In this document: positions 3,975 through 19,501 of the stretch, piece after piece
Numbering within the stretch: position 1 is the first letter of the stretch
Layout of the letters: every line of letters begins with the position of its first letter
IMG/VR virus record: IMGVR_UViG_3300042305_001483
Direction: 5' to 3' (one strand)
Source of the DNA: a virus
DNA: 64,000 bases
Translations under genes and position numbers: made by a program
The notes under the pieces: generated by a model
Databases searched by the model: none
The model's input: only the letters and a program-made list of their open reading frames with translations
Told to the model about the DNA's origin: nothing

Positions 3975-6044
3975 ATGACACGAGTAAGAAGACTAAACGT
4001 AAGTCAAGTTGAAGGTGGAGGATCAAACGATAACAATACCAACAAAATTCGCCCCTACGGTGAACTTGCTCTTTATGTTGGTGATAACAATAAATTAGAA
4101 CTGTTAATGTTTGACGGTGTTCGCACACATGTAAACAGCAAAGTTTTAAGCAAAGGCACATTCTACGGTGGAGATGCCGACAGCAGTGACGGATTAAATT
4201 ATGATTCTATTAAATTAGTTCCTGATGAGTTCTTAAGACGAGACGGTAGTGACCAATATGTTATCATTGAACCTACAGGCGGCGAACCAGGACATGTTCA
4301 CATTAGAGCAGGTGGCTCTATAGATTCTAGCACTGCCGACTTATTTTTAGGCGGTGAAAAAAATAATGTGCGTGTCAGTGACACTAATGATCGTGTGACT
4401 ATTACCACAGATGCTGGTTTTGACGATATTACACGCACTTGGACTTTTGACGCCAACGGTGATTTAGTGTTTCCCGGAGCAACTAGTAAAATAGGTGAAA
4501 GCGAACCTGGACTGGTAGTATTCAGCGATAACAGATTTGCCATATTAACCAACGCAGCTACTACATCAAGCCAATCTTGGATATTTGATACAGATGGCGA
4601 TTTAACATTTCCTAGTAATCTGGTTATAACTCCTATAGGCGATTTTGCTCCAGTAACTGGAACATTCATTACTCAAGCTCCTGGTGAATTTTTAGGTATA
4701 GTTTCAACAGGAGACGGGGGTGGCAGTCAAATAGGTTGGGCAGAAAATGCCTTTGTTCCAGGTAGGACGGCCGCATTAGCATTTAATGCCGGTAATGCTG
4801 GAGATGTGGATATCATAACCGGTGACTACACAGGGACTGTTTATACTTGGATTTTTAGAGCAAATGGTATTCTAGAATTACCTGGCGGTGGGGAAATTAC
4901 ATCCAATGAAATCACCAATGAAGTATTTGGAACTACAACAACTTCTTTAACATTAGTTCCGGCTGGTGCAACTGACGCAGGTCAGCGTTTAGAAATATAC
5001 TCAACTATCGGAGATGAAGGTAATCATTTACATCTAACTTCTGGTAGCACATCTACTGAACTATATTTAGGTAATGATTCTCAATATGTTAAATTAGGCT
5101 CATCGGGTGAAATAGAAGTCAGTGCCCAAAGTGGATTGACGTTGCGTGGCGAAGGAGCAGGGTCTTATGCCTACCTAACATTACCAAACAATGTTGATTC
5201 GTCATCGACTATGGTAACATTGAACAATTCCAATGGTGATGTTTTAATACGAGCAGCAGAACCCAGTGACCCAGCTCCTCAACAATGGGCTTTTGGTAAA
5301 GATGGTAGTTTAAAATTTACAGATGGCACATCAACTATTAGAGCTCTTAATACAACCACCGACGGCCTACCAGGATTGAGTTTATTTGCTCCAGAGAGAA
5401 TATTCCTTGGCATTAGTGGCACAAGCACAAATTGGAGTTGGGACTTTAGAAACTACGGTCAAAGTGACTACTCTACAGATAAAAAACCTGCGGTAATGTT
5501 GCCGGGCGGTAGCGTAATTGAGGAAGATCTAACAAATCCTCTATTGAATAATGGAATGGCGGGTCCATTGACCGTAAGCAGCCAAGATAACTTAACTTTA
5601 AGAACTAATACTTTAGACGAAGCGCAATCTCCGACAGCAACTTACGATTGGGTGTTCGGTAAAGATGGCGTCTTAACATTCCCTAACGATGATTTAACGG
5701 TTAGCAGTATTGAAAACGAGTCAAGAATATGGACAACGGCCACAGACATCACCGTATACCGCAACGGTCAAGATGGTTATGGCATAAAAGAAAATGAAGT
5801 AAGTGTCTATGTTAGTAACAGTAAAATCACTCAAGTTGTTCCAACAGGTTTAGAGATAGTCAACGGTTCATTAAAATTCCCAGACTCTACCATACAGACT
5901 ACTGCTTTTATAATTGGAACTGCTCCACTAAGTTCCACATCTACAGGCACAGCAGGAACAATTGCATACGATGCAAGTTATTTTTATGTTTGCACCGCAA
6001 CCAATAGCTGGCAAAGAATTGGTTGGGATCCAACACCTTGGTAA
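3975..6044 (+). CDS. Tail-fibre-like protein with repeated WxFxxDGxLxFP modules
   Basis: Five WxFxx(D/N)GxLx(F/L) repeats; C-terminal GTAGTIAYDASYFYVCTATNSWQR motif typical of phage fibres. Confidence 0.65.
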   Translation: MTRVRRLNVSQVEGGGSNDNNTNKIRPYGELALYVGDNNKLELLMFDGVRTHVNSKVLSKGTFYGGDADSSDGLNYDSIKLVPDEFLRRDGSDQYVIIEPTGGEPGHVHIRAGGSIDSSTADLFLGGEKNNVRVSDTNDRVTITTDAGFDDITRTWTFDANGDLVFPGATSKIGESEPGLVVFSDNRFAILTNAATTSSQSWIFDTDGDLTFPSNLVITPIGDFAPVTGTFITQAPGEFLGIVSTGDGGGSQIGWAENAFVPGRTAALAFNAGNAGDVDIITGDYTGTVYTWIFRANGILELPGGGEITSNEITNEVFGTTTTSLTLVPAGATDAGQRLEIYSTIGDEGNHLHLTSGSTSTELYLGNDSQYVKLGSSGEIEVSAQSGLTLRGEGAGSYAYLTLPNNVDSSSTMVTLNNSNGDVLIRAAEPSDPAPQQWAFGKDGSLKFTDGTSTIRALNTTTDGLPGLSLFAPERIFLGISGTSTNWSWDFRNYGQSDYSTDKKPAVMLPGGSVIEEDLTNPLLNNGMAGPLTVSSQDNLTLRTNTLDEAQSPTATYDWVFGKDGVLTFPNDDLTVSSIENESRIWTTATDITVYRNGQDGYGIKENEVSVYVSNSKITQVVPTGLEIVNGSLKFPDSTIQTTAFIIGTAPLSSTSTGTAGTIAYDASYFYVCTATNSWQRIGWDPTPW

Positions 6045-6047
6045 ATA
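6042..6047 (+). promoter_or_regulatory. Late promoter core TAAATA
   Basis: 7 nt upstream of the ATG at 6055; no Shine-Dalgarno in between. Confidence 0.55.
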
Positions 6048-6054
6048 TTAAATT

Positions 6055-6537
6055 ATGCGTATACTAGACTTAATCGAATCAGATAATACTATTAGAACTG
6101 GAGATGTATTTGCTCTAGAGCTTGATAACGGACTTCTTATAGAATCTGTTATCGTTGGATTTATGAATGACGGAGTTGTTATTCAAGGTGATGACACGGT
6201 GTTATCATATCTATCACATACCCCTGTCCAAGAATCTATCACTAAATTTACAGAAATGCAACTGGCAATCATGGAGGGCGGTGGCAGTCTTGATGAAGCC
6301 GAATATCAAGGACGCAATGTTCAGTTAGGTAAACCCATGTCTGGTGATGTTAAAAAATCTAAAGTTTATGTAAAAGGTCCAAAAGGAAATGTTGTCAAAG
6401 TCAATTTTGGCGATAAAAAGATGAAGATTAAAAAGTCTAATCCTAAACGTCGCAAAAGTTTTAGGGCTAGACATAATTGTGCTAATCCCGGGCCGCGGTG
6501 GAAAGCAAGATATTGGTCTTGCAGAGCATGGGAGTAA
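6055..6537 (+). CDS. Probable internal head protein with basic C-terminal domain
   Basis: Leader MRILDLIE; internal LDE then a basic domain RRKSFRARHNC...KARYWSC that I recognise from T4-like phage proteins. Confidence 0.55.
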   Translation: MRILDLIESDNTIRTGDVFALELDNGLLIESVIVGFMNDGVVIQGDDTVLSYLSHTPVQESITKFTEMQLAIMEGGGSLDEAEYQGRNVQLGKPMSGDVKKSKVYVKGPKGNVVKVNFGDKKMKIKKSNPKRRKSFRARHNCANPGPRWKARYWSCRAWE

Positions 6538-6541
6538 TCTA

Positions 6542-6907
6542 ATGTTCTTAAAAGAATTTTTCAGCAAACCTATTGACATTGATCATAATCAAAAAAATAA
6601 AAATCAAATGCAAAATTTTGACGATGACTTATTTTGGTTTATTTTAGATAATGATCGGTTGCATAAAGAACATTTTTTTCCAATTTCTAAAAAAATAAAA
6701 TCATTAGACGAATGTGGCGATCGACAAATATACGAATTGTTTATGCCAATGGTCGTAGACGGTTGTAAAAACTTTTATGAAGACAAAAAAATGTCCGGTA
6801 GGATGAATAAAAAATTTCCTCAAGAAATGAGAGAAGGCATTTGTAAAAGGTTGTATGACCACTATTGTGAAAATTATGGTTTGAGAAATAAAAATGAAAA
6901 TCTTTGA
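6542..6907 (+). CDS. Hypothetical protein, probable head protein (start moved from 6479 to ATG 6542)
   Basis: GGAG at 6531 then ATG 6542 in frame; begins MFLKEFF; removes the overlap with the upstream gene. Confidence 0.6.
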   Translation: MFLKEFFSKPIDIDHNQKNKNQMQNFDDDLFWFILDNDRLHKEHFFPISKKIKSLDECGDRQIYELFMPMVVDGCKNFYEDKKMSGRMNKKFPQEMREGICKRLYDHYCENYGLRNKNENL

Positions 6908-9900
6908 AATTATAAATATCTTTCAAAATAAAAAATTAACTGAAGGCGGTAATGCTCAAGTCGCCGATAGAGATAATCCAGAGATTGTATATTCTGCTGA
7001 AAAAATTGATCTTGAAAAAACTAACAGAACTCAGGCTGCTAATTTAGTAAAACAAACAATTAATGCGTTGAATCAAAGTTTTCAATCCATTTATAAAGAA
7101 CCAATTTTTGGAGAAGAATTATTTAAATCAAACGAATATTTAAGCGGAAGTTCTAAACACTTTTTTAATACTGCTGGAATTTCAGATCAAGAATTTACAA
7201 AATATAAACAAAAAGTCGGCGATATCGATGTACAATGCGATGTAGATCAAAAACCACAGATACAAAAATTTTTAGATGATCATTATAAACAACAGTTTGG
7301 TCCAGGAAGATTATTGGGATATTCTTCTTCTGCGGAACAATTCAATTCAATTTTTCGTATCGACGAAATTGGACTAAATGTTCAAATTGATTTTGAATTT
7401 GGGCAATATGATAAAGAATTAGGTCACCCCACCGAATGGTATAAATTTAGTCATAGTTCAGAGTGGGACGATATTACCGCAGGCATTAAGGGTGTATTTC
7501 ATAAATGGATTTACAGAGCATTACCTGCTGCTAAAGTAACTCCAAAGCACATAGCAGCATATAAAGGCTCGGGAAAAAATCGTGCTATTAATATAGAACC
7601 AGAACCTACTCAATCAAAAGATATAAGTTTTGCAGTAGGAAGCAGTCAGGGAGGTGGAGCAAGTTATAAATTCTCTCCTTACTTAGATCCGCAAACTGGA
7701 AAACCTATGGATATAAAAGGTGTTCCTGTACAACAAGAATTGCCCAGCGCTCAAAGAACTTATATACAAAATTTAGATCAACAGTTCGAAATGTTTTTTG
7801 GAGTGCAGCCCAGCGGAAACGATAAAACTTTACAAAAAAGTTATGTAGGGACTTTAGAACTAATGAACAAATATTTAGATCAAAGTCAAATAACTGCTGC
7901 ATTTGAAGAATTTATAAAAATTTGTTTTGACGAAGCAGCACAGATGATCGATCGAGATAATCCAGAATCCGATGCTGAGGCAAAATTTGCCGCAATTGAT
8001 AAAGGACTAGAAATTTTAAAAATTTCAAACAAAAAACAATTACGAGATCAAGCAGTAGCAATGGCAAAAATATATTCAGATGAATATTTTGATTTACAAC
8101 AATTTAAGAAATGGTTTGATAGTTTACCTAAAGAAAAACAAGATGCTATCAATGTAACCAGCAAAGGTGCTGCTAGAAAAGATATTCAGTATAATTCTCT
8201 TAGAAAAAAATTAAAAGCAGCCGGACAATGGCCTATTAATGTATTAACAGAAGAAGATGCCAAGCCAAATTATGGTAGGCAAGGTATTGAACACATTTAT
8301 AGTCGTAGACCCGACGGTACTCCAAGTAGTACAGAAATGAAGCCTGCTGCATTCGTAGAATTATGCGACGAAATAGCACAACTAGGCGGAAATTTAGATA
8401 ATATACAGATAAATTTAAAAGTCGACGGAATGGGTATGAGATTCGGTAAAGACGAATCTGGAGAGCCATTTTTTATTACTAGCAGTAGATCAGATCCAGT
8501 TAGATTAAAAGATGTAGGATCATTCTTGGCTTATAATCAAGAATTAGTAAAAAAAGGTGAATTAGATCCGAACAGCGAATTAGGTAAAGCCGCAATTGCA
8601 AGAGCAATTAATTATGACAAGGCTGCTGAAACAATTTTAAAAAGTAAATTTATTCAAACTTTACCCCCCGACACAATTGTACAAGCAGAAATGATGTACG
8701 ATTCGAATATGACTCCAGACAGTCAAGGATTTAAAACATTTGTTAATATTCCTTACGATGTAAAAAAATTAGGGAAAGTAATGACGTTGGCCCCGTTCAT
8801 GGTTAAAAAGTATTCAACTAAAGAACGAATACCCGATGAACAAAATATAATTAAAAAATTACTATCAACAAGTGATTCTAACATTAAAATTATTTCAAAC
8901 GAATTAGATCAATCAGGAATAAATGTTGGTAAAATAATTGCTCCTGTTGTCAATTTGCCTGCAGATTTGCGGGCAACACTGACTAGCAGAAAACCAGCAG
9001 ACAGAGCCATTAGAGATGCTCAAGTAATTCCTGTATTAGATAAAGCAAGGGCAGAATTAAGTAAGGCAATTATTGATAGTCCAAAATTAAAAGGTATGGA
9101 TATGCTAGGCCCATACAACGAAGGTATTGTTGGAAACATGCCTAGTGGAAGACTATTTAAAGTTACAAGTCCCTTGATGAAAGAAAAAATATTACAAAAG
9201 CAATCATTTGGATCTGTTGAAAAAAGATCTGCGGTTGTTGCCATGGGTAGTTTTGCTGGACATAGAGGTCATGAACAGTTAATAAGTATTGCCATAGATA
9301 GAGCAAATAAAGAAGGAGCGACTCCATTTGTATATGTAGGTGGTAAAGTAGGACCAGATGATCCATTTCCTGTAGAAACAAAATTAGAAACTCTTAGAAA
9401 ACTATTTCCAGGAGTAGGCATATTAAGTGTAGACGCACAATTTGATTTACAAACAGATAAAGCAACAATTGGTCAATTTGGTAAGAAAGTCGAATATGAA
9501 CTAATGAAAAAACCGCCGTATTTTAATCATATTATTATAGCAGTAGGCGAAGACAGAAAAGCATTTGCAGATGGGTTAGTTGCATGGGCAACCAATAGAT
9601 TTGGAAACCATCCAAATCTAAAGCATGTTAAATGGGAAGAAGATATAAGTTCTCGAAATGAAGAAGCAGGCGGAACTGGTGTAAGCACTACTCAAATGAG
9701 AAATGCATTAAAAACTATGCCTGAAAATCAAGCCCTTCAAATATGGAGCAAAGGTTTTAATGTAGAAAAATTAGGTGTTGAATATATCAAACACCTAATG
9801 GATGTTGCAAGAAAAAATATGAATATCCAACCTCCCGCTGCTGCTCCCGTAGTAGAATCATCTATATTTGATCCTGTACCTGGAAAAATAAATGTAGGTG

Positions 9901-10151
9901 ATTTAGTTTCATTTAAAGGTTCTAGCGAAACATGGAAAGTAATAGCAGTTAATTTAGATCGATCTAAAGCAAAAATAAAATCAGTTGACACAGGAATGAT
10001 TCATAAATTCGACACTGAAAATCTTTATAAAATTAATAATAAAGATTATACATCAGAAACTAGATTGTTTAATGCACTATTAAGGTTAAATTTTACCAAT
10101 GAAACAGTATTACATCACTCAAGAAAATATCGCACAAGACAGCCCCGATGA
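6894..10151 (+). CDS. Multidomain nucleotidyltransferase: Pol-beta-type NTase + ATP-dependent ligase-like domain + HxGH (cytidylyltransferase/NadD-like) domain + SH3/KOW-like tail
   Basis: LSGSS..GDIDV..VQIDF; KVDG..QAEM..EGIV..FKV; HRGH..VGEDR..VSTTQMR; VGDLVSFKGSSETWKV. Confidence 0.7.
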   Translation: MKIFEIINIFQNKKLTEGGNAQVADRDNPEIVYSAEKIDLEKTNRTQAANLVKQTINALNQSFQSIYKEPIFGEELFKSNEYLSGSSKHFFNTAGISDQEFTKYKQKVGDIDVQCDVDQKPQIQKFLDDHYKQQFGPGRLLGYSSSAEQFNSIFRIDEIGLNVQIDFEFGQYDKELGHPTEWYKFSHSSEWDDITAGIKGVFHKWIYRALPAAKVTPKHIAAYKGSGKNRAINIEPEPTQSKDISFAVGSSQGGGASYKFSPYLDPQTGKPMDIKGVPVQQELPSAQRTYIQNLDQQFEMFFGVQPSGNDKTLQKSYVGTLELMNKYLDQSQITAAFEEFIKICFDEAAQMIDRDNPESDAEAKFAAIDKGLEILKISNKKQLRDQAVAMAKIYSDEYFDLQQFKKWFDSLPKEKQDAINVTSKGAARKDIQYNSLRKKLKAAGQWPINVLTEEDAKPNYGRQGIEHIYSRRPDGTPSSTEMKPAAFVELCDEIAQLGGNLDNIQINLKVDGMGMRFGKDESGEPFFITSSRSDPVRLKDVGSFLAYNQELVKKGELDPNSELGKAAIARAINYDKAAETILKSKFIQTLPPDTIVQAEMMYDSNMTPDSQGFKTFVNIPYDVKKLGKVMTLAPFMVKKYSTKERIPDEQNIIKKLLSTSDSNIKIISNELDQSGINVGKIIAPVVNLPADLRATLTSRKPADRAIRDAQVIPVLDKARAELSKAIIDSPKLKGMDMLGPYNEGIVGNMPSGRLFKVTSPLMKEKILQKQSFGSVEKRSAVVAMGSFAGHRGHEQLISIAIDRANKEGATPFVYVGGKVGPDDPFPVETKLETLRKLFPGVGILSVDAQFDLQTDKATIGQFGKKVEYELMKKPPYFNHIIIAVGEDRKAFADGLVAWATNRFGNHPNLKHVKWEEDISSRNEEAGGTGVSTTQMRNALKTMPENQALQIWSKGFNVEKLGVEYIKHLMDVARKNMNIQPPAAAPVVESSIFDPVPGKINVGDLVSFKGSSETWKVIAVNLDRSKAKIKSVDTGMIHKFDTENLYKINNKDYTSETRLFNALLRLNFTNETVLHHSRKYRTRQPR

Positions 10152-10407
10152 TTGCTATCTTGCACCCGACGATCCCGCACATCAAATAAAAAGACTTCAG
10201 TTTTTAGGAGGTCTAGGCGGACAAGCAAGATTAGCGGAATATAATCAACAGACTGCGCAATCTAGATTAAATCAAGGTGGTAACATTACAACAACCGCAG
10301 CAGAAAATGCTCGTATTATGCGTGAAAAAAATATTCAGCCAGGAACAGAAGAATGGTTTAAACTTTGGTTCAGTAAACCCTACCTAACTGGCGAACGTAA
10401 AATTTAA
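10099..10407 (+). CDS. Hypothetical protein, possibly head-associated
   Basis: 102 aa ORF in the late cluster with a PGTEEWFKLWFSKP motif; overlaps the upstream gene by 53 nt. Confidence 0.6.
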   Translation: MKQYYITQENIAQDSPDDCYLAPDDPAHQIKRLQFLGGLGGQARLAEYNQQTAQSRLNQGGNITTTAAENARIMREKNIQPGTEEWFKLWFSKPYLTGERKI

Positions 10408-10413
10408 TAAATA
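10408..10413 (+). promoter_or_regulatory. Late promoter core TAAATA
   Basis: 7 nt upstream of the dps ATG. Confidence 0.55.
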
Positions 10414-10420
10414 TACGATC

Positions 10421-10855
10421 ATGGAACAATTACACCAATTAGCAAAAATAGCATTTGCCAGCGAGTTTAGTTTTTATCTAAAAGCACACCAATTCCATTG
10501 GAACGTAGAAGGTATGTTTTTTGAACCTTTGCATAATCTATTTGGTAAAATTTACGAAGAAGTTTATGAAAGCATAGATGTGTTTGCTGAACAAATTCGT
10601 AGTTTAGATACATATATGCCCGGCAGTTACACTAGACTTAATATGTTAACACAAGTCGAAGACGAAACAGAAATCTTCGACGGTAAGCAAATGGTTGCTG
10701 AATTGCTTAAAGATAATGAAAAAATGAAAGTTATCTTAAAGAAATTGTTCGAAGTCAGTGAAGCAGCAGGCGAACATGGATTTAGTGATTTTATTGCTAG
10801 TAGATTAGATGCTCATGCTAAACACGGTTGGATGTTAAAGGCAACACTTAAATGA
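10421..10855 (+). CDS. dps: Dps / DNA-binding ferritin-like protein
   Basis: HQFHWNVEG..F..LH.LF..IYEE....D..AEQIR ferroxidase signature; KHGWML C-terminus. Confidence 0.93.
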   Translation: MEQLHQLAKIAFASEFSFYLKAHQFHWNVEGMFFEPLHNLFGKIYEEVYESIDVFAEQIRSLDTYMPGSYTRLNMLTQVEDETEIFDGKQMVAELLKDNEKMKVILKKLFEVSEAAGEHGFSDFIASRLDAHAKHGWMLKATLK

Positions 10856-11217
10856 GAGCACGCGAATTCATGGTTGAACGCAAAGGCGGAAAAATGACCA
10901 AGCGTCAACAAAATCCTACCCGCGGCGTTAACAAATACACTGATGACGATAAGTGGAATAGCGATTACAAATTATATAGATTGGGCTTGGCACTGGCTGC
11001 AACTGATGGAAAAACAATGCCAGAGATGGATGAAGAAAGTTGGATCGGTAGATATAAAAGTCTACATCCATATAGTCAATGTGATCAAGATATGATCAAT
11101 GTTGCGGCTAAAGTAGCCGGAGTTAATATACACGATGTAAACAAAGGTGACATGAGAAGTCAAGAAACACCAGATACTTATACAGTAAGTCCAGTGGCGA
11201 ATTGGAGTAAAAAATGA
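10852..11217 (+). CDS. Probable internal head protein
   Basis: Leader MRAREFMVE resembles the T4 capsid-targeting sequence MKTYQEFIAE. Confidence 0.55.
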   Translation: MRAREFMVERKGGKMTKRQQNPTRGVNKYTDDDKWNSDYKLYRLGLALAATDGKTMPEMDEESWIGRYKSLHPYSQCDQDMINVAAKVAGVNIHDVNKGDMRSQETPDTYTVSPVANWSKK

Positions 11218-13163
11218 ACGAAGAATTTAAAAAAGTTAAATTACCTAATGAAACTAGGTACGTTTTAGAAACAACAACTGCAGGTGCTATTGGAACGAAT
11301 AGTATTGCTACTGCGGAAAAACCCCTAGGTGAACTTCAAAGACGACAGACAATTTCTGTGCCTGTTAATCAGAAGCCTCGTCAAGGTCCGATGAAATCAC
11401 AGACCGGTGCAGGTGCGCATCGTGATAAGAAAAAAGAACAAAAACAAGGTAAAGAAAAACATCGTAAGCCTTTTGATGAAGAGAAAGGTGTAGCAGAAGG
11501 AATTGAACAAGCCGATCTAAGTCCAGAGGTTATTGAAATATCCAAGGATCTTTATAAATCCTTGCGTCGTTCAGCCAGAGATTCGTTACGAGCCAAAAAA
11601 ACTATGTTAGTTATTAAGATAACCCGTGAATTGACCCCTCAAGAAAAAAAACTAGTAGATGACACTATGAATCAATCTGGTATTGAGTATCAGATCAAAA
11701 ATAATGTAAACGATTATGTGTATGGAACCTATAAAAATACATTAATCGGTATACCATATACACAATCTACTACGGAACAAGGTGTGGCGGAAACAACAGG
11801 TGACGAAAAATTTGATAAATCAATGAGAAAAATGACTGGAAAAATTACTCCAGGCGATGCTGACGAGATGTGGCCGACACAAGAATTTGAACCAGTTGAT
11901 CTTGATCCATCATACTTGCCAAGTATGGAAAAATACAAGGCAAAATTATTTCCATTGGCTTACCAATACTGGACTGACGGCGACAATGCAGATGAATTAA
12001 GGGCATTAGGATGGGAACCCGATTATGGCGACGACTATGTTATGGTGGTGCTGTCTGGCATCGGACACGACGGTCACATTCAATACGACAAATATGATTT
12101 TGATGCTGAAGATGAAAACAATGAAGGTGTGGCGGAAGGCGATCAAGAACCTGACCACGAAATTAGCATGGCCAGCAACGAACTCCAAAGTATCATGTCT
12201 GATGCTAAAAAATTATTAGTTCTAATCAAACGTTATAGCGAGATGGAAGGGCTAGAAGCATGGCAACAAAGTAAAATTACTAAATCGGCAGATTATTTAA
12301 CTGCTGTATTGCGCAGCATCGGTGGAGAACAAGGTGCGTTAGAATCTCAAGTTAATGAGTACGAAACCCACACTTATAAAGATAGTCAAGGCAATGTATG
12401 GCGTGTCAACGACGAGGGCGAAAAAGAATTACTTCGTGGAGCACCGGGCAGTAGTTATGGCGGTAGCAGATATGGATCAAGATATCCTAGTAGATCATAT
12501 TCAAAGCCTTCAGGAATGTATTTTTATAACGTAAAACCTGGGCAAGAAAATGATGCACAATCTGCTGGTTTAAAACAAAGCAAAAGTGGAAAATGGTATT
12601 CGACTTATCAAAATTCACAAGCAGATAAATTATTTGGTCCAGGAAAGTTTTGGCAACCAAAAAATGAAGCAAGTGTAGCGGAAGGTATGAATTCTTTATC
12701 ATTCTGGAAGCGTGAAGCACAAAAGGCCGGTGGTGCTGCCAATATTGATTGGTATGCTATTGGCGTCGAACACGGCAAACAAGGTATTGTAATGAATCCT
12801 CCATATGGTGTAGGCGCTAAAGCCGTAACATTATACGGCAAAGGATTAGATGCCGGTCAGCAAGGTGTAGCGGAAGGCAAGAAAAAAGGTGTAGATGGTA
12901 AAGCCTGCTGGAAAGGTTACAAACGTATGGGCACTAAAAAGAAAGGTGGCCGCACTGTAGACAACTGTGTACCAGTAGGCGAGGATTCTTATATCGAAAG
13001 TCTTATGAATCAACTATATGAAAAGGCTCCTCCAGGAGACAAATATGAACGTATAGTCAAGCATATTAAAGCAGGATATAGAAAAGACGGTAAACTAACT
13101 GATGTAGAAAAACGCAAGGCCTACGGTGCTGCTTGGAAGGCAAAAAATAAATCAAAAAAGTAA
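11214..13163 (+). CDS. Modular polyprotein with GVAE junctions, probable protease-processed head protein
   Basis: Five (G/S)VAE motifs separate unrelated modules, including WQQSKITKSADYL and CWKGYKRMGTKKKGG..NCVP. Confidence 0.7.
   Translation: MNEEFKKVKLPNETRYVLETTTAGAIGTNSIATAEKPLGELQRRQTISVPVNQKPRQGPMKSQTGAGAHRDKKKEQKQGKEKHRKPFDEEKGVAEGIEQADLSPEVIEISKDLYKSLRRSARDSLRAKKTMLVIKITRELTPQEKKLVDDTMNQSGIEYQIKNNVNDYVYGTYKNTLIGIPYTQSTTEQGVAETTGDEKFDKSMRKMTGKITPGDADEMWPTQEFEPVDLDPSYLPSMEKYKAKLFPLAYQYWTDGDNADELRALGWEPDYGDDYVMVVLSGIGHDGHIQYDKYDFDAEDENNEGVAEGDQEPDHEISMASNELQSIMSDAKKLLVLIKRYSEMEGLEAWQQSKITKSADYLTAVLRSIGGEQGALESQVNEYETHTYKDSQGNVWRVNDEGEKELLRGAPGSSYGGSRYGSRYPSRSYSKPSGMYFYNVKPGQENDAQSAGLKQSKSGKWYSTYQNSQADKLFGPGKFWQPKNEASVAEGMNSLSFWKREAQKAGGAANIDWYAIGVEHGKQGIVMNPPYGVGAKAVTLYGKGLDAGQQGVAEGKKKGVDGKACWKGYKRMGTKKKGGRTVDNCVPVGEDSYIESLMNQLYEKAPPGDKYERIVKHIKAGYRKDGKLTDVEKRKAYGAAWKAKNKSKK
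11485..12878 (+). repeat. Dispersed in-frame direct repeat, consensus AAGGTGTRGCGGAAGG, 5 copies
   Basis: Copies with the G/S codon at 11487, 11781, 12126, 12672 and 12864. Confidence 0.85.
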
Positions 13164-13203
13164 GTGAGCAGGAACCGCAAGATCCGGCACAGGATCCTGC
13201 TCA
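13135..13203 (+). promoter_or_regulatory. Candidate programmed -1 ribosomal frameshift signal
   Basis: SD-like GGAAGG 13135-13140, in-frame A_AAA_AAG 13154-13160 followed by TAA, 9 bp stem TGAGCAGGA/TCCTGCTCA 13165-13203. Confidence 0.65.
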
Positions 13204-13381
13204 AGATAAACCTAAATTAAAGCCGGCAGTAAAATTAACTCCTGCCGTGTCATTGGATCAATGGGAACAAACTTTTTTAGATGCTGACCCAGAAAGATAT
13301 CATCAATTTAGAAATAAAACTCCTGCTAAAAAAATTCAAATGGCACAGTCTGCTAGAAAACACGCTATTGAGAAAAACTGA
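13160..13381 (+). CDS. Start-less -1 frame ORF (73 aa), predicted frameshift extension of the 11214 polyprotein
   Basis: VSEQEPQDPAQDPAQDKPK...ARKHAIEKN*; fills the gap exactly and its TGA overlaps the next ATG (TGATG); the frame is closed upstream by TAA 13148-13150. Confidence 0.7.
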   Translation, partial: VSEQEPQDPAQDPAQDKPKLKPAVKLTPAVSLDQWEQTFLDADPERYHQFRNKTPAKKIQMAQSARKHAIEKN

Positions 13382-13809
13382 TGAGAAATTTTATAACATT
13401 AGTCGAATCGGCAAATAAAGGTTGCCCAATTGCCACACATAACATAGATATTAATTTAAAAAATCGGCAAAAAGCCATAGACGAATATCACTACGGGCCA
13501 GCCAATCCCGATAAACCAGAAGATTATTGGAAAAAATCTGCTAAGATATTTGGAGTAAGTGAGACAACTGCTAAAACAATGCGATGCGGTAATTGTGCAG
13601 CATTCGATGTTAGCGATAGCATGAGGGAATGCATTGCAACTGGGATTAAAGGCAACGAAAAAAATATTGACCCAAACGCAACTATAAATCTCAGCGATCT
13701 AGGATATTGTAATTTTTTACATTTTAAATGTGCAGGTAGTCGCAGTTGTAAAGCATGGGTTACCGGAGGCCCAATTACTGAAAAAGATAAAGGTAAGAAA
13801 GCAGATTAA
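13381..13809 (+). CDS. Cys-rich protein, possible HiPIP-like Fe-S or Zn binder, with head-targeting-like leader
   Basis: MRNFITLVE leader; RCGNCAAF...GYC..LHFKCAGSRSCKAW. Confidence 0.5.
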   Translation: MRNFITLVESANKGCPIATHNIDINLKNRQKAIDEYHYGPANPDKPEDYWKKSAKIFGVSETTAKTMRCGNCAAFDVSDSMRECIATGIKGNEKNIDPNATINLSDLGYCNFLHFKCAGSRSCKAWVTGGPITEKDKGKKAD

Positions 13810-13810
13810 C

Positions 13811-14374
13811 ATGAGATTTAAAGAGTTAAATGAAATTAGTCCTCCGACCTTTAAGGGTAGTTTAACTCCCGATCTGCTAAAAAGTAAACTTTGGCTATGC
13901 CAAAATTTAAAAGTGTTAAATCGAGAAAAATTCTCAACAATTTATATATTAGGATCGTGGTACGGCACAATGGCAATAATGCTAGACCGATGCGGAATAA
14001 AATTTAAAAAAGTGATTAATGTTGATTTAGACAAAAATCATATTGCTATTTCTAAAAAAATACTTTCAGCATTAAAAATAAATCATCAGTGTATCCAAAA
14101 AGATGTTAACACGTTAAAATTTGAACAATTGGATAAAAACAGTCTAATTATTAACACTTCAATAAACGACATTAATGGAACAGAATGGTTTGATAAAATT
14201 CCAGATGGGACATTGATAGCACTACAAAGTAGAAACAATGCCAACGGAGTATACGATACATTAGAAGAATTAGATCAAGAATTTTTTCTTACTGATACCT
14301 TAGTTTTAGACGAAAAAACTTTCGAAGATCCAGAGACTCAATATCAAAGATTTATGAAAATTGGCATTAAATGA
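13811..14374 (+). CDS. Class I SAM-dependent methyltransferase-like protein (start moved to ATG 13811)
   Basis: IYILGSWYG motif I-like, VINVDLD, IINTS; leader MRFKELNE. Confidence 0.6.
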   Translation: MRFKELNEISPPTFKGSLTPDLLKSKLWLCQNLKVLNREKFSTIYILGSWYGTMAIMLDRCGIKFKKVINVDLDKNHIAISKKILSALKINHQCIQKDVNTLKFEQLDKNSLIINTSINDINGTEWFDKIPDGTLIALQSRNNANGVYDTLEELDQEFFLTDTLVLDEKTFEDPETQYQRFMKIGIK

Positions 14375-14375
14375 T

Positions 14376-14405
14376 TTGACTTTAATCCTTTAATTTTTAT
14401 ATAAT
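14376..14405 (+). promoter_or_regulatory. Sigma70-type early promoter
   Basis: TTGACT-18 nt-TATAAT, followed by AAGGAG SD. Confidence 0.7.
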
Positions 14406-14425
14406 TAAATTATTAAGGAGAAATT

Positions 14426-14695
14426 ATGAGTAAATCATTCGGGACCCCCGAGCAGGCCAAAATTAAACAAATTATTTCAGAAGGTGTTACTGTTCTACAA
14501 GAAATTCAAGATCTTACTGAAGGGCTAAATGAAACTATTAAAGCCGTTGCACAAGAGTTAGATGTTAAACCCAGTGTAATTCGAAAAGCAATTCGTATTG
14601 CACTTAAAGATCAATGGGATCAGGTATTCCGTGAATTTGATGACCTCGAAACTATTGTCGATATCAGCGGACATGCTAATCGCCGTGAAGACTAA
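14426..14695 (+). CDS. T4 DsbA/GapR-like dsDNA-binding protein
   Basis: 89 aa helical protein with IKAVAQELDVKPSVIRKAIRIA pattern. Confidence 0.6.
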   Translation: MSKSFGTPEQAKIKQIISEGVTVLQEIQDLTEGLNETIKAVAQELDVKPSVIRKAIRIALKDQWDQVFREFDDLETIVDISGHANRRED

Positions 14696-14697
14696 AA

Positions 14698-14988
14698 ATG
14701 TTAGATTTGTTAAAGCCAACATTTGATTGGATTCGAGATGACTTTCGTTCTTATCCTTTTAGGTTCATTGTTGAGTTGGGTGCTTGGGCAATATCTATTG
14801 GTTGTGCAATCACAATGGCCCTTACAGTCCCAACGCCGCCGCTTCTCGTTCTATATCCTATTTGGATTACAGGTTGTGCTATGTACGCTTGGGCTGCTTA
14901 CACTCGTCAATCCTTCGGAATGCTCGCAAACTATCTATTACTTACCACAATCGATTCAGTGGGTTTAATTCGGATGTTAATACAATGA
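14698..14988 (+). CDS. Small membrane protein
   Basis: 96 aa with about three hydrophobic segments. Confidence 0.65.
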   Translation: MLDLLKPTFDWIRDDFRSYPFRFIVELGAWAISIGCAITMALTVPTPPLLVLYPIWITGCAMYAWAAYTRQSFGMLANYLLLTTIDSVGLIRMLIQ

Positions 14989-15089
14989 TTAGATTATTAA
15001 AATCACTTTTCCAAAAGTGGAGACAAAAAAAGCAATTAAAACAAAGAATTAAAGAATTGCGAAAAAGAGATCCATTTATCTATAAATGA
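14985..15089 (+). CDS. Small basic protein (34 aa)
   Basis: MIRLLKSLFQKWRQKKQLKQRIKELRKRDPFIYK; ATGA overlaps at both ends. Confidence 0.55.
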   Translation: MIRLLKSLFQKWRQKKQLKQRIKELRKRDPFIYK

Positions 15090-15961
15090 AAATTTTTGGA
15101 ATTAACGCACTCAATCACGACACAAGTATATGCGTGTTCGATAAAGACATACTTTTTCATAAAAAATCAAAAAACAGTCTTTATTTAACTAATGATCTTG
15201 TGGAAGAAGCAAAGAAATTTGGAAATCCAGATGTGATTGCGTGGTACGAAAACCCTTGGCTTAAAAAAACAAGACAGATCTATGCCGGTCAATTTAAAGA
15301 TGCATTATCTTTTAAAAATTTGCCGTCTGTATATCTAAAACAATTTAATTTAAATTCAATTCCTATTTTTTATGCACCCCATCATCTAAGTCATGCACAT
15401 TTTGGTGTTTATTCTAGCGGTTTTGATAATACGGCTGTACTAGTAGTAGATGCTATCGGAGAGTGGAATACTGTCAGCATTTGGAATTACAGTTATGGAA
15501 ATTTTGAACGTGTTATGGTTAAAAACTACCCATATAGTTTAGGTTTATTTTATTCAGCATTTACAGAGTTAATTGGATTAAAACCAGTTCGAGATGAATC
15601 TGTATTAATGAATATAAGTCAAAAAGGAAATCCTTGGATTTACCACGATAAAGTTAAATCTTATTTAGATAAAAATTTGCATAAAGGAATATGGGATTGG
15701 GACGTTAACACAAGTAATAGCAACGATACAATTAATATTGCGGCTTCGGTTCAGTTTGTGTTCGAGAAAGAAATTATTAAATTAGCCAATATTGCAAGGC
15801 AGTATAGTAATAAACTTGTATTTACTGGAGGTTGTGCGTATAATAAATTTGTACACAACAAAATTAAGATTTTATTCAAAGATTTTCATGTGCCAAATTT
15901 TCCCGGTGATGCCGGTTCTAGTATAGGTGCCGCTTTATATATCAGCAAAAAAATTCTATAA
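15086..15961 (+). CDS. Carbamoyltransferase (NodU/CmcH/TobZ family), Kae1-like domain only
   Basis: NHDTS, HHLSHA, VVDAIGEW, SLGLFYS, GGCAYN, GDAGSSIGAA; no YrdC-like C-terminal domain. Confidence 0.8.
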   Translation: MKIFGINALNHDTSICVFDKDILFHKKSKNSLYLTNDLVEEAKKFGNPDVIAWYENPWLKKTRQIYAGQFKDALSFKNLPSVYLKQFNLNSIPIFYAPHHLSHAHFGVYSSGFDNTAVLVVDAIGEWNTVSIWNYSYGNFERVMVKNYPYSLGLFYSAFTELIGLKPVRDESVLMNISQKGNPWIYHDKVKSYLDKNLHKGIWDWDVNTSNSNDTINIAASVQFVFEKEIIKLANIARQYSNKLVFTGGCAYNKFVHNKIKILFKDFHVPNFPGDAGSSIGAALYISKKIL

Positions 15962-16033
15962 TAAATAATTTTGTTCAAGGTTAGCGAGCCATAATTCGCA
16001 TTATTAAGGTTAACCGGCCATAAACGGTAGGAG
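15962..16033 (+). promoter_or_regulatory. TAAATA box plus tandem hairpin leader of the DNA polymerase gene (candidate translational operator)
   Basis: AAGGTTA-GCGA-GCCATAAT-TCGC and AAGGTTA-ACCG-GCCATAAA-CGGT directly before the AGGAG SD. Confidence 0.6.
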
Positions 16034-16038
16034 AAAAA

Positions 16039-18711
16039 ATGAGTTACGTTGATGCTATCTGGGATAGAGAAAAGGACACCGTTTTTGTTGTTGAACGAGA
16101 CAATAAGAAAGGCAGAATTTATCAAGAATATCCTGCAAGATATATTTTTTATTACCCCGATACAAAAGGGAAACACCGATCAATATACGGAGAAAGTCTA
16201 AGTCGTGTATTGTGCAAGAATTACAAAGACTTTCAAAAAGAACAACGAGTTTATAGCAATCATAAACTTTTTGAACATGACATTAATCCAATCTTTAGAA
16301 CATTAGAAGAAAACTATTTAGGTCGAGATGCACCAAAATTACATGCAGCATTTTTTGACATCGAAGTAGATTTTGATCCCGAAAGAGGATACGCTAGTCC
16401 AGATGATGCATTTATGCCAATAACGGCAATTACTGTATGTCTTCAATGGCTTGATGTCTTAGTAACACTAGCAGTTCCACCAAAAACACTAACTATCAGT
16501 CAAGCAACCGAATTAGTTAAAGACTTCCCCAACACTCACTTGTTCGAAACTGAAGGTGAAATGTTAGAAATGTTCTTACAATTAATTGAAGATGCAGATG
16601 TGTTAAGCGGATGGAACAGCGAAGGTTTTGATATTCCTTATACTGTTAATAGAGTTGCAAAAGTTTTAAGTAAAGACGACACTAGAAGTTTCTGCTTATG
16701 GAATAAGTTTCCTAAAAAGCGTGAATATGAAAAATTTGGTAAAGCCGCAACTACTTACGACTTAGTCGGTCGTGTACATATGGACAGTCTCGAACTATAT
16801 CGCAAGTATACATATGAAGAACGACATAGTTATAGATTAGATGCTATCGCTGAATACGAATTAGGTGAAACTAAAACAGTTTACGAAGGAACCCTAGATC
16901 AGTTATATAACAATGACTTTCGAAAGTTTATAGAATATAACAGACAGGACGTTTCTCTGTTAGATAAACTAGATAAAAAATTAAAATTTTTAGATCTAGC
17001 CAATACAATTGCACACGAAAATACAGTTTTGCTACAAACAACACTCGGGGCTGTTGCTGTCACTGAACAGGCTATTATTAATGAATCACATCAGAGAGGA
17101 TTGATTGTTCCTAGCAGATCAAACAGAGACGAATTAGGAGATACACAAGCCGCAGGTGCATATGTTGCATACCCTAAAAAAGGTCTTCACGACTGGATAG
17201 GATCAATGGACATTAACAGTCTATACCCTTCAGTAATTCGTGCGTTAAACATGGGTCCAGAAACTATTGTAGGACAATTAAGACCTGTAAAAACTGATCA
17301 ATTTATACATGAGCAAATGAATTTGCATAAAAAATCGTTTGCAGCAGCATGGGAAGGTATGTTTGGTACATTTGAGTATGAGGCTGTCATGCGGCAAGAT
17401 CGAGCATTTGAAATTACGTTAGATTTAGAAAACGGAGAGACTCATATTTTAAGTGCGGCTCAAGTTTATCAACTTATTTTTGAAAATAATAAGCCATGGA
17501 TGTTAAGTGCTAACGGAACAATTTTTAGTTACGAAAACGAAGGTATTATTCCCGGATTGCTAAAAAGATGGTATTCAGAACGTAAAGAGTTACAGGCTAA
17601 ATTAAAGGAAGCAATTAAAGCCGAAAATAAAATTGAAGAAGAATATTGGGATAAAAGACAACTAGTTAAAAAGATTAATCTAAACAGTTTATACGGAGCC
17701 ATTCTTAATGTCGGATGTAGATTTTTTGATAAAAGAATTGGTCAGAGCACTACGTTAACTGGAAGACAAATTGCCAAGCACATGGCTAGCAAAATTAATG
17801 AAGTAATTACTGGAGAATACGATCACACTGGAAAGAGCATCATTTATGGTGATACTGACTCTGCTTACTTCAGTGCATACAGTACATTAAAAATTGACAT
17901 TCAGAAAAACTTAGTCCCCTGGGATAAAGATATTGTTATTCAACTTTATAACACTATTGCAGAAACAGTTAATGCCACTTTTCCTCATTTTATGCAAGAT
18001 TCATTTCATTGTCCAAAATCTAGAGGAGAAGTAATTAAAGCAGGTAGAGAAATTGTTGCCAGTAAAGGCCTCTTTATTACAAAGAAAAGGTATGCTGTTC
18101 TTTATTACGACAAAGAAGGTAAAAGACTAGACGTCGACGGTAAACCTGGTAAAATTAAAGCAATGGGATTAGACTTAAAACGTGCAGATACTCCAGAATT
18201 TATGCAGATATTTTTAGAAGAAATTTTAACCAAGGTACTAAACGGTGCTCAAGAAAAAGAAATATTGGAGAGAATTAGTGAGTTCAGAACAGAATTTAAA
18301 ACTCGCCCAGGATGGGAAAAAGGTTCGCCCAAACGAGCCAACAACATTACAGAATACGAAGATAAAGAGAAGAAGGCTGGCAAGGCAAATATGCCTGGTC
18401 ATGTCCGAGCAAGTATTAATTGGAATACGCTCCGTAAGATGAATGGTGACAAATATTCTATAGGAATCGTTGATGGAATGAAAGTCATCGTCTGCAAAAT
18501 GAAAGATAATCCCCTAGGATTTACCAGTGTTGCATATCCTGTAGACGAACTTAGACTACCTAAATGGTTTCAAGAATTACCGTTTGATCATGCAGAAATG
18601 GAAGCCACAATTATTAACAACAAATTAGACAACCTAATTGGTGTTTTAGAGTGGGACCTAAACTCAACTAAAGATGATAATATGTTCGGAAAATTGTTTT
18701 CCTTTAATTAA
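16039..18711 (+). CDS. gp43: Family B DNA polymerase (T4 gp43-like) with 3'-5' exonuclease
   Basis: FDIEVD, GWNSEGFDIPY, DINSLYPS, KINLNSLYG, YGDTDS, KKRYA. Confidence 0.97.
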   Translation: MSYVDAIWDREKDTVFVVERDNKKGRIYQEYPARYIFYYPDTKGKHRSIYGESLSRVLCKNYKDFQKEQRVYSNHKLFEHDINPIFRTLEENYLGRDAPKLHAAFFDIEVDFDPERGYASPDDAFMPITAITVCLQWLDVLVTLAVPPKTLTISQATELVKDFPNTHLFETEGEMLEMFLQLIEDADVLSGWNSEGFDIPYTVNRVAKVLSKDDTRSFCLWNKFPKKREYEKFGKAATTYDLVGRVHMDSLELYRKYTYEERHSYRLDAIAEYELGETKTVYEGTLDQLYNNDFRKFIEYNRQDVSLLDKLDKKLKFLDLANTIAHENTVLLQTTLGAVAVTEQAIINESHQRGLIVPSRSNRDELGDTQAAGAYVAYPKKGLHDWIGSMDINSLYPSVIRALNMGPETIVGQLRPVKTDQFIHEQMNLHKKSFAAAWEGMFGTFEYEAVMRQDRAFEITLDLENGETHILSAAQVYQLIFENNKPWMLSANGTIFSYENEGIIPGLLKRWYSERKELQAKLKEAIKAENKIEEEYWDKRQLVKKINLNSLYGAILNVGCRFFDKRIGQSTTLTGRQIAKHMASKINEVITGEYDHTGKSIIYGDTDSAYFSAYSTLKIDIQKNLVPWDKDIVIQLYNTIAETVNATFPHFMQDSFHCPKSRGEVIKAGREIVASKGLFITKKRYAVLYYDKEGKRLDVDGKPGKIKAMGLDLKRADTPEFMQIFLEEILTKVLNGAQEKEILERISEFRTEFKTRPGWEKGSPKRANNITEYEDKEKKAGKANMPGHVRASINWNTLRKMNGDKYSIGIVDGMKVIVCKMKDNPLGFTSVAYPVDELRLPKWFQELPFDHAEMEATIINNKLDNLIGVLEWDLNSTKDDNMFGKLFSFN

Positions 18712-18720
18712 AAAAAATTG

Positions 18721-18749
18721 TTGACTTTTATCATTAACCTAAATAAAAT
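18721..18749 (+). promoter_or_regulatory. Sigma70-type promoter overlapping a TAAATA box (18740-18745)
   Basis: TTGACT-17 nt-TAAAAT. Confidence 0.65.
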
Positions 18750-18766
18750 AACAGAAAGGATTTTAT

Positions 18767-19501
18767 ATGAAAGATATTTTACAAGACATTGTTAGTCACA
18801 CACACAGCCTGGGATTCCTTAATATTGTTAGGGTAACCGGCACAGATGAAAAAACACAAATCGACAGCATGGCCGATGATCGAACTGTTATCATGTTTGC
18901 AGAAACATCTAATCCGTACGAAGACATGATCGGAGTATTTGGAATGGCACAAATGAATAAACTAAAATATTTGTTAGATTGCCCCGAATATAAAGAAGGT
19001 GCAAAAATTGAAGTAGTCAAAACTGACAAAAACGGAGAAACTTTTCCATCCGGACTACTTTTTGAAAATGCTTTAAAAGATTTTAAAAACGATTATCGTT
19101 TTATGAATTCCGAAGTTATTAATATTAAACTTCAAACAGTTAAATTTAGAGGCGTTAAGTGGGATGTCGAAGTTCAACCAAGCATTGCTAGTGTACAAAG
19201 ATTTGCATTCCAAGCAGCAGCAAATAGCGAACATGCTACATTTTTAACAAAAACTGACAGCAATAATTTAAAATTTATTTTCGGTGATGCAGCAAGTCAC
19301 GGTGGTGAATTTATTTTCGCACAAAATGTCACAGGTAGTCTAAACAAAAATTGGTCTTGGCCTGTGTTACAGGTATTGAGCATACTCAAAGCATCCGATG
19401 TTAACAATTGCAAAATGAGTATCAGCAATGAAGGTGCTCTACAAATTACACTGGACAGCGGCCTAGCAACTTACAAATATATTATTCCAGCATTGACATG
19501 A
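18767..19501 (+). CDS. Probable sliding clamp (gp45/PCNA-like)
   Basis: 244 aa, directly after the polymerase, clamp-like size and C-terminus (GALQITLDSGLATYKYIIPA). Confidence 0.55.
   Translation: MKDILQDIVSHTHSLGFLNIVRVTGTDEKTQIDSMADDRTVIMFAETSNPYEDMIGVFGMAQMNKLKYLLDCPEYKEGAKIEVVKTDKNGETFPSGLLFENALKDFKNDYRFMNSEVINIKLQTVKFRGVKWDVEVQPSIASVQRFAFQAAANSEHATFLTKTDSNNLKFIFGDAASHGGEFIFAQNVTGSLNKNWSWPVLQVLSILKASDVNNCKMSISNEGALQITLDSGLATYKYIIPALT

Follow-up and report, generated by a model that had tools for sequence, protein, structure and literature searches.

What does a short sequence do when it recurs, in frame, between unrelated coding segments of a single gene, and does it act as DNA, as protein or as both? 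The question is raised by a locus in a stretch of 64,000 nucleotides from IMG/VR virus record IMGVR_UViG_3300042305_001483 (hereafter, the window), in which an open reading frame (ORF) on the plus strand at 11214–13163 encodes a 649-residue polyprotein of seven modules, numbered here from the N terminus and joined by short junctions of the type QGVAEG. An earlier note on this DNA had proposed that the junction is both a protease site, freeing each module inside the capsid, and a recombination joint, the whole forming an integron-like array of packaged effectors. The source is an uncultured T4-related jumbo myophage: the window genes include homologues of the T4-type baseplate proteins gp6, gp25 and gp5 and a gp43-type DNA polymerase, and, judged by the polymerase, its closest isolated relatives are the jumbo phages Phosso (52%) and Atu_ph07 (47%). 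The record is rated 35% complete with a contig of 125.5 kb, which implies a genome of ~350 kb, and the contigs that bear the motif belong to T4-related jumbo phages of ~340–400 kb. The genome record used for the analysis ends at window position 63122 and does not include the final 878 bases (63123–64000).

The junction as a site of recombination

Five intact junctions, all on the plus strand, fit the pattern (K/Q/E/A)[GS]VAE[GT]: junction 1 at 11484–11501 (AAAGGTGTAGCAGAAGGA; KGVAEG), junction 2 at 11778–11795 (CAAGGTGTGGCGGAAACA; QGVAET), junction 3 at 12123–12140 (GAAGGTGTGGCGGAAGGC; EGVAEG), junction 4 at 12669–12686 (GCAAGTGTAGCGGAAGGT; ASVAEG) and junction 5 at 12861–12878 (CAAGGTGTAGCGGAAGGC; QGVAEG). 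The five start positions and the spacings between them (294, 345, 546 and 192 nucleotides), as first described, were all verified. A sixth, decayed junction (12345–12365, plus strand; GAACAAGGTGCGTTAGAATCT; EQGALES, residues 378–384) was revealed by the clustering of homologue alignment ends at residues 371–388, where homologues carry EQGVAEG and then a wide range of modules. The 12-nucleotide core matches the window six times when one mismatch is tolerated, against 0.70 expected, and no shuffle reached six; five of the 12 VAE tripeptides of the contig (~40,000 residues in 125.5 kb) fall in the polyprotein ORF. A GVAE in a tail-fibre-like ORF at 38441–40216 was rejected as a chance match, since the flanking consensus is missing.

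Comparison of related genomes shows directly, at the level of sequence, that the junction is a site of recombination. Over 5736–11500 and 12124–19163 the window shares 99.9% identity with two loci, L219 (from JGI 3300043571) and L220 (assembled independently, from Logan), both of which have an unrelated single module of 221 nucleotides instead of modules 2 and 3 (replaced segment 11501–12123, plus strand, 623 nucleotides). The difference opens inside junction 1, with the last base of its Val codon, and identity resumes at junction 3 (AAGGTGTGG), so that these two junctions are the left and right breakpoints; junction 1 is a perfect consensus in L219 and is degenerate, having drifted at three silent sites, in the window. 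Module 3 appears from its sequence to have been exchanged recently between diverged phages, as the segment 11778–12136 has 98.9% nucleotide identity to the loci L006, L009 and L010, compared with 72.7% for the syntenic DNA polymerase region; this block begins in junction 2 and stops in junction 3, and its flanks are not alignable. A further relative, L012, shares the module 3 block at 84%, versus 67% for the polymerase region. Duplication is also seen, in L171 (2–2209), where a 67-residue unit bounded by motifs is repeated in exact tandem (100% nucleotide identity over 168 nucleotides), whilst L134 holds the single-copy form after the same upstream module. The proposal of a recombination junction is thus borne out by replacement, transfer and duplication of modules with breakpoints inside the motif, and the related loci L219, L220 and L006 differ from the window exactly at the motif rather than holding the same modules in the same order.

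Comparison between polyprotein genes yields 43 distinct nucleotide blocks that are at least 85% identical and end internally on both sides. In 21 of these, each end falls no more than 13 nucleotides from the centre of a motif, where 0.29 such blocks would be expected; counted singly, 56 of the 86 block ends lie within this distance. Alignment ends in the 120 homologues listed pile up at residues 90–98, 184–190, 294–314, 371–388, 481–495 and 548–558. A first, protein-level test of alignment ends was noisy (similar medians, modest enrichment) and was replaced by the nucleotide blocks and the query-anchored ends, and a MAFFT alignment of full-length proteins with fragments was misaligned and was dropped.

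The conservation of the junction extends to its silent positions. The consensus of the junction DNA is CAA GGT GTG GCG GAA GGC, in which GTG and GCG are rare codons. In the window, Ala of the motif is encoded by GCG in four of five junctions, compared with 7.1% of Ala codons genome-wide (binomial probability ~1e-4), and Val by GTA or GTG in five of five and by GTT in none, the genome-wide shares of GTG and GTT among Val codons being 7.8% and 47%. The Ala part of the earlier codon claim therefore stands; that Glu is always GAA is true (five of five) but uninformative, because GAA makes up 89% of the background. A protein-based scan of IMG/VR yielded 461 relatives of the window polyprotein, and in ORFs found by protein similarity only, which supply a set of 27 junctions recovered without DNA-based selection, GGT GTG GCG GAA is nearly invariable; GTG and GCG are each used in 26 of 27, over local backgrounds of 6–19% and 4–9%, respectively. 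Across 323 junctions from 101 distinct ORFs the frequencies are 87% for GTG, 87% for GCG and 89% for GGT, then GGC, and third-position G is favoured in the codon two before Gly (AAG/GAG/CAG over AAA/GAA) in these AT-rich genomes. The exact 18-mer CAAGGTGTGGCGGAAGGC occurs in at least 120 viral contigs of IMG/VR, always in the QGVAEG frame, in long ORFs (median 548 residues) and with flanks that are not conserved. The scans of the contig and of relatives, together with the codon-usage comparison, reveal a widespread motif whose Ala and Val codons are far from background usage. A single gene has up to seven junctions in the loci fetched, and one database homologue has up to nine sites on a loose definition. 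The 18-mer was also sought in bacterial and archaeal genomes (596 Gb), where it gave 56 stretches, all but one with a single match; these look like near-chance matches, mostly in high-GC genomes, and a few resemble phage contigs binned into metagenome-assembled genomes. Neither the motif strings nor DUF6321 led to anything relevant in the literature, and no paper describing the element was found.

Rare codons at domain boundaries could slow translation, and the motif is a G+C-rich island in an AT-rich mRNA, so a role in the messenger was considered, be it a translational pause, an internal Shine–Dalgarno-like site or a structured or protein-binding RNA. Such a role is highly improbable. Windows of 81 nucleotides centred on the motif fold just 1.4 kcal/mol better than controls, as G+C content alone predicts, and the duplex with the anti-Shine–Dalgarno sequence is weak (−6.6 versus −15.6 kcal/mol for a real site); the RNA-structure and Shine–Dalgarno readings were rejected on these energies. 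Moreover, the flanks are without conservation or covariation, and a role in the mRNA leaves the ends of identity blocks within the motif unexplained.

The segments between the junctions are mutually unrelated (no pair below E = 0.8), with isoelectric points (pI) of 9.8, 6.5, 4.1, 4.5, 9.3, 8.3 and 9.9 for modules 1 to 7, in agreement with their earlier description as unrelated modules of contrasting composition. All are encoded on the plus strand and, within the window ORF, have neither start nor stop codons of their own. Module 1 (11214–11498; residues 1–95) is basic and is a constant N-terminal ‘head’ module: it forms the N terminus in ~68 of the 120 homologues listed, with different cassettes after it, and its leader is conserved in these as M-x-x-E-F-K-K ... 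T-R-Y-V-L-E (here MNEEFKK...TRYVLE). Module 2 (11499–11792; residues 96–193) is modelled as an α/β domain without close relatives, and module 3 (11793–12137; residues 194–308) is the very acidic, recently exchanged cassette. Module 4 (12138–12362; residues 309–383), a helical hairpin with a predicted local distance difference test (pLDDT) score of 80–94, is found in >40 of the homologues listed, in other contexts; module 5 (12363–12683; residues 384–490) comprises a small β-sheet, a G/S/Y-rich stretch and an α/β domain (pLDDT 96–98) and is followed by module 6 (12684–12875; residues 491–554). Module 7 (12876–13160; residues 555–649) is basic and consists of a two-Cys β-hairpin part (CWKGY...NCVP), widespread in IMG/VR, and DUF6321-like helices. 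Modules of fixed length (55, 69, 73, 76, 79 and 105 residues) reappear beside different neighbours in relatives. Module sizes there (median 79 residues) are comparable with those of T4 internal proteins (95–193 residues), in keeping with a protease site at the junction.

Scans of the window protein against Pfam and PHROG gave no function, just PHROGs of unknown function on the last module, and no peptidase domain was detected by either in the window protein or in 62 relatives. The modules of relatives are likewise mostly of unknown function, although some are GNAT, nucleotidyltransferase, ParB-like, T7 gp0.7-like kinase or SutA RNA polymerase-binding domains. A Foldseek search of the C-terminal half against the PDB and BFVD produced no informative fold match.

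The junction as a predicted prohead protease site

Where the 12-mer varies in frame, by one or two mismatches, the middle bases of the Val and Glu codons are never altered, while the silent positions and residues P4 and P2 vary. The constant is therefore at the level of residues, hydrophobic-x-Glu, and this, as judged from sequence, is the specificity class of the T4 prohead protease gp21. The five window junctions read V-A-E↓G/T, that is hydrophobic-x-Glu then a small residue (the arrow marks a known or predicted cut), and the T4 record gives the cleavage sites as IAE↓A and FLTE↓A (LTE↓A); cleavage by the T4 protease follows Glu, and the T4 protein Alt is cut at ITE-6 and LTE-619 (PMC5694885). 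LAE is kept at both L012 junctions despite three to five changes in the 12 core bases.

Proteases of the S77/gp21 type are encoded in nine of 16 large motif-bearing contigs, as well as in the genomes G002 and G004; G004, which has an orthologous polyprotein locus, and the complete G002 encode homologues of gp21, gp22 and gp23. In the capsid protein of both, ...KYLAE↓S/T lies where such a site is expected, ~36 residues before GVQPM, the corresponding T4 site, FLTE↓A, lying 48 residues before. In their scaffold protein several [LI]AE sites are encoded by ordinary codons, which argues that the rare codons of the junction are not needed for protein function. The AlphaFold model of residues 305–649 (pLDDT 73) consists of small confident domains with dips at residues 374–384, 485–494 (at junction 4) and 517–555, which correspond to junctions, and the junction linkers are, on this modelled confidence, probably flexible; the model of the N-terminal half is poor (pLDDT 52). 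From the residues conserved at the junctions and the proteases encoded by relatives, we infer that the junctions are plausible cutting sites for a gp21-type prohead protease.

Two large proteins of G002, a genome of 400 kb, with 649 and 733 residues (encoded within 283300–287400 and 166300–170400, respectively), have a single junction each, KQGVAEN and NQDVAEN, ~60–80 residues before the C terminus. By analogy with T4 Alt, from which a cut at LTE-619 removes 63 C-terminal residues (PMC5694885), their C-terminal tails may be removable.

Leaders on genes near the polyprotein resemble the T4 capsid targeting sequence (CTS). The upstream gene (10852–11217, plus strand), which overlaps the start of the polyprotein ORF by four nucleotides and whose family stands beside the polyprotein in 17 loci, has the leader MRAREFMVE, and the downstream gene (13381–13809, plus strand) has MRNFITLVE; MRILDLIE and MRFKELNE are further CTS-like leaders in the same cluster of genes (6055–14374). 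Stand-alone homologues of module 7 in cultured T4-like cyanophages start MKTFKQ[FL]REE, with adjacent genes that start MKDFKKLREE; the T4 internal protein (IP) IPI starts MKTFKEF, and IPII and IPIII start MKTYQEFIAE. Three relatives of the polyprotein match ‘virion structural protein’ PHROGs. The polyprotein is inferred to be capsid cargo, and the cluster at 6055–14374, which adjoins the DNA polymerase gene, may be a packaged-cargo locus.

Alternatively, the junction could be a recombination joint and nothing else, the chain remaining an intact multidomain protein in which GVAE is a tolerated translation of the DNA site; such a protein might not be packaged at all, but act, for example, early in host takeover. 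Its direct demonstration being limited to the DNA-level role, the junction itself is compatible with this view, as are the place of the gene among replication-type genes and the GNAT, nucleotidyltransferase, T7 gp0.7-like kinase and SutA RNA polymerase-binding domains of relatives, which could act in the cytoplasm. A joint of this kind would, however, account poorly for the codon-phase constraint, with the second positions of Val and Glu fixed while silent sites vary, and for the retention of LAE in L012 after heavy nucleotide change; the CTS-like leaders on neighbouring genes and stand-alone homologues and the PHROG matches to virion structural proteins also speak against it. We consider it unlikely.

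Proposed mechanism of exchange and comparison with known phage systems

With moderate confidence, we propose that the locus encodes a modular polyprotein whose junction, (E/K)-Q-G-V-A-E↓G, serves both DNA exchange and protease cutting. In the outlined mechanism, the 15–18 nucleotides of junction DNA would act as a frame-preserving microhomology at which general recombination of the UvsX/RecA type, its partners being either co-infecting relatives or copies in one gene, replaces, transfers, deletes or duplicates whole modules. Participation would be limited to junctions that keep the consensus; because only these can take part, recently exchanged cassettes would have near-perfect junctions and old junctions would decay. 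The window shows such decay in junction 1, at silent positions, and in the sixth junction, where residues have changed as well. In the protein, the linker would present a flexible, exposed hydrophobic-x-Glu site to a gp21-type prohead protease. After a single loading into the prohead, probably by way of the constant N-terminal module or a leader, the chain would be cut into internal proteins of ~60–115 residues that leave with the DNA, like T4 IPI–III.

No tyrosine recombinase (PF00589) was found in the window's own contig or in three motif-bearing genomes that are 97–100% complete, in a search in which all control genomes matched, and serine recombinases (resolvases) were likewise not found in the three complete genomes; the earlier remark that no recombinase is visible in the window thus extends to them. 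All three encode a general recombinase of the RecA/UvsX type. The conserved neighbours of the polyprotein in ~100 loci are a large nucleotidyltransferase-like protein, a Dps-like protein, small leader-bearing proteins and DNA polymerase, with no nuclease or recombinase among them, and the motif, an unstructured coding 18-mer, has no attC-like fold. General recombination is favoured because of the lack of a dedicated recombinase in the complete genomes and among the conserved neighbours, and of any notable fold in the motif. The simplest mechanism would be general recombination at microhomology, by analogy with that proposed for promoter-early-stem-loop (PeSL) cassettes, IP loci and gp38 motifs (PMC2839356, PMC3157838).

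The other possibility is that a dedicated sequence-specific enzyme, either a homing-type endonuclease or a recombinase, reads the 18-mer and drives exchange; the locus would then be an in-frame analogue of an integron, a cassette system that acts on protein modules instead of genes and that builds and renews a virion-delivered effector polyprotein, with the head protease cutting at the same site. The very strong conservation of silent sites, reaching the third-position G two codons before Gly in AT-rich genomes, the isolation of the 18-mer as an island of identity and the presence of an HNH endonuclease gene in the window are all what such an enzyme would lead one to expect. Against this, the complete genomes lack tyrosine and serine recombinases, none of the conserved neighbours is a nuclease or recombinase, an attC-like fold is missing, and T4-type phages recombine at short conserved motifs with their general machinery (PMC2839356, PMC3157838), so that we regard a dedicated enzyme as improbable. 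The polyprotein resembles an integron in that exchangeable units are arrayed between copies of a recombination site, but it has no IntI, attI/attC hairpins, independent ORFs or promoter logic; attC sites are imperfect hairpins that flank promoterless ORFs, which the polyprotein motif is not. In view of the missing tyrosine and serine recombinases, the missing attC-like structure and the modules without start or stop codons, the integron-like array proposed earlier survives as an analogy and not as a real integron.

Several points weigh against the proposed double role of the junction. The window's own contig, at 35% completeness, contains neither a protease nor a capsid gene, and the polyprotein locus adjoins DNA polymerase and replication-type genes, not head genes. 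The T4 late-promoter octamer TATAAATA is depleted in the window (3 occurrences versus 11.5 expected), giving no late-promoter signal; the clade probably uses a different late promoter. The enrichment of CTS-like leaders, with four of eight in the cluster at 6055–14374 versus four of 137 elsewhere, is a pattern that was picked post hoc, after viewing the data. At the DNA level, passive microhomology may fall short of explaining 87% conservation at silent sites, and a restoring force, be it gene conversion, selection or a dedicated enzyme, may act on them, or the conservation may reflect simple turnover; for a test of silent-site conservation at stable orthologous junctions, one pair was usable. 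The motif array was not found in the cultured relatives Phosso, Atu_ph07 and Vibrio phage 2.275.O, which leaves the array without a laboratory system.

The nearest parallels to a junction with both roles come from T4 and its relatives. In T-even phages IPI, IPII, IPIII and Alt carry a CTS that is removed by the gp21 prohead protease, and the IP loci are hypervariable. Like the polyprotein modules, which are candidate cargo, the T4 IPs are small, unrelated and fast-evolving proteins with a short signal ending in hydrophobic-x-Glu as their common feature, and Ip1–3 are injected anti-restriction proteins (PMC12373910). T4 ipII and ipIII are identical over their first 32 nucleotides, which encode MKTYQEFIAE and therefore provide a precedent for a targeting and cleavage signal that doubles as DNA homology; conserved elements at IP loci are thought to channel shuffling, according to a statement in PMC2839356 that cites Repoila 1994. 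Each T4 IP, however, is encoded by a gene of its own, complete with start and N-terminal leader, whereas the modules described here are fused in frame through an internal QGVAEG linker.

The glycine-rich motifs of T-even gp38 and the His boxes of gp37 (Tetart, Desplats and Krisch 1998; PMC3157838) are, like the junction, short coding motifs at which variable segments are swapped in frame, but they form the structural core of one folded tail-fibre adhesin domain, are neither linkers nor protease sites and have no sequence similarity to the junction. T4-type phages also have mobile regulatory PeSL cassettes (Arbiol et al. 2010, PMC2839356), in which repeated short sites of homologous recombination move ORFan cassettes without a dedicated recombinase, and those authors draw the comparison with integrons themselves (PMC2839356); a PeSL is an intergenic early promoter and stem-loop that flanks whole genes, whereas the junction is coding, in frame and without a stem-loop. 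Polyvalent proteins of phages and conjugative elements (Iyer et al. 2017, PMC5512222) combine many unrelated effector-type domains in one chain, which is co-delivered with DNA and thought to be processed into units, as the polyprotein would be, and ParB-like, nucleotidyltransferase and kinase domains are common to them and the relatives of the polyprotein. They are processed by an embedded zincin-like peptidase (MPTase), and descriptions of them mention neither a conserved linker nor a junction kept at the DNA level; in the polyprotein the Pfam and PHROG scans showed no peptidase domain.

What is new here is an element of this type as a linker inside a single ORF, up to seven times per gene in the loci fetched, in >100 uncultured jumbo phages, and, on comparison of their sequences, exchange caught between nearly identical genomes. 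The idea of Krisch and colleagues that conserved motifs of T-even phages serve as recombination sites is thereby extended to uncultured jumbo phages and to the inside of one gene. If the proposed double role is correct, a single targeting signal would load many small cargo proteins for release by the head protease, and the same sequence would let distant phages exchange cargo modules with the reading frame intact. The natural alleles, 99.9% identical genomes that differ by whole cassettes, show that modules are still being exchanged in present-day lakes or seas. With their ends marked by junctions, the modules, hundreds in number, amount to a ready-made and self-delimiting catalogue of small phage proteins that might act in anti-defence or host takeover, and the junction could serve as a design rule for engineered phage-delivered protein cargo.

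Neighbouring genes and related arrangements

The most conserved neighbour family of the polyprotein, present in 39 loci, is represented in the window (6894–10151) by a 1085-residue protein with a match to phrog_19290 and a cytidyltransferase/FAD_syn-like domain; it lies in the 6055–14374 cluster and begins MKIFEIINIF...LTE. In T4-like cyanophages a cytidyltransferase gene stands beside a stand-alone DUF6321 gene, and this shared arrangement suggests an old synteny between the two. A Dps/ferritin-like gene (10421–10855; PF00210, 5.9e-20) is found beside the polyprotein in 29 loci.

Synechococcus phages S-H9-1 and S-WAM2 (L279 and L280) encode 179-residue proteins made of an MKTFKQLREE leader, a DUF6321 part and a C-terminal helix that resembles window module 4 (WVQSKITLAADY versus WQQSKITKSADY). 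In these proteins, modules of the window type are fused in another order and without GVAE linkers.

Scans of the window for sigma-70 promoters and for terminators gave results at or below chance. The 218-nucleotide gap after the polyprotein contains a 44-residue ORF (13248–13382), which is also called in L219 and whose TGATG end overlaps the start of the next gene. On the minus strand, directly downstream of the gp6-like baseplate wedge gene, an ORF of 4573 residues (41561–55282) probably encodes a giant baseplate or fibre protein.

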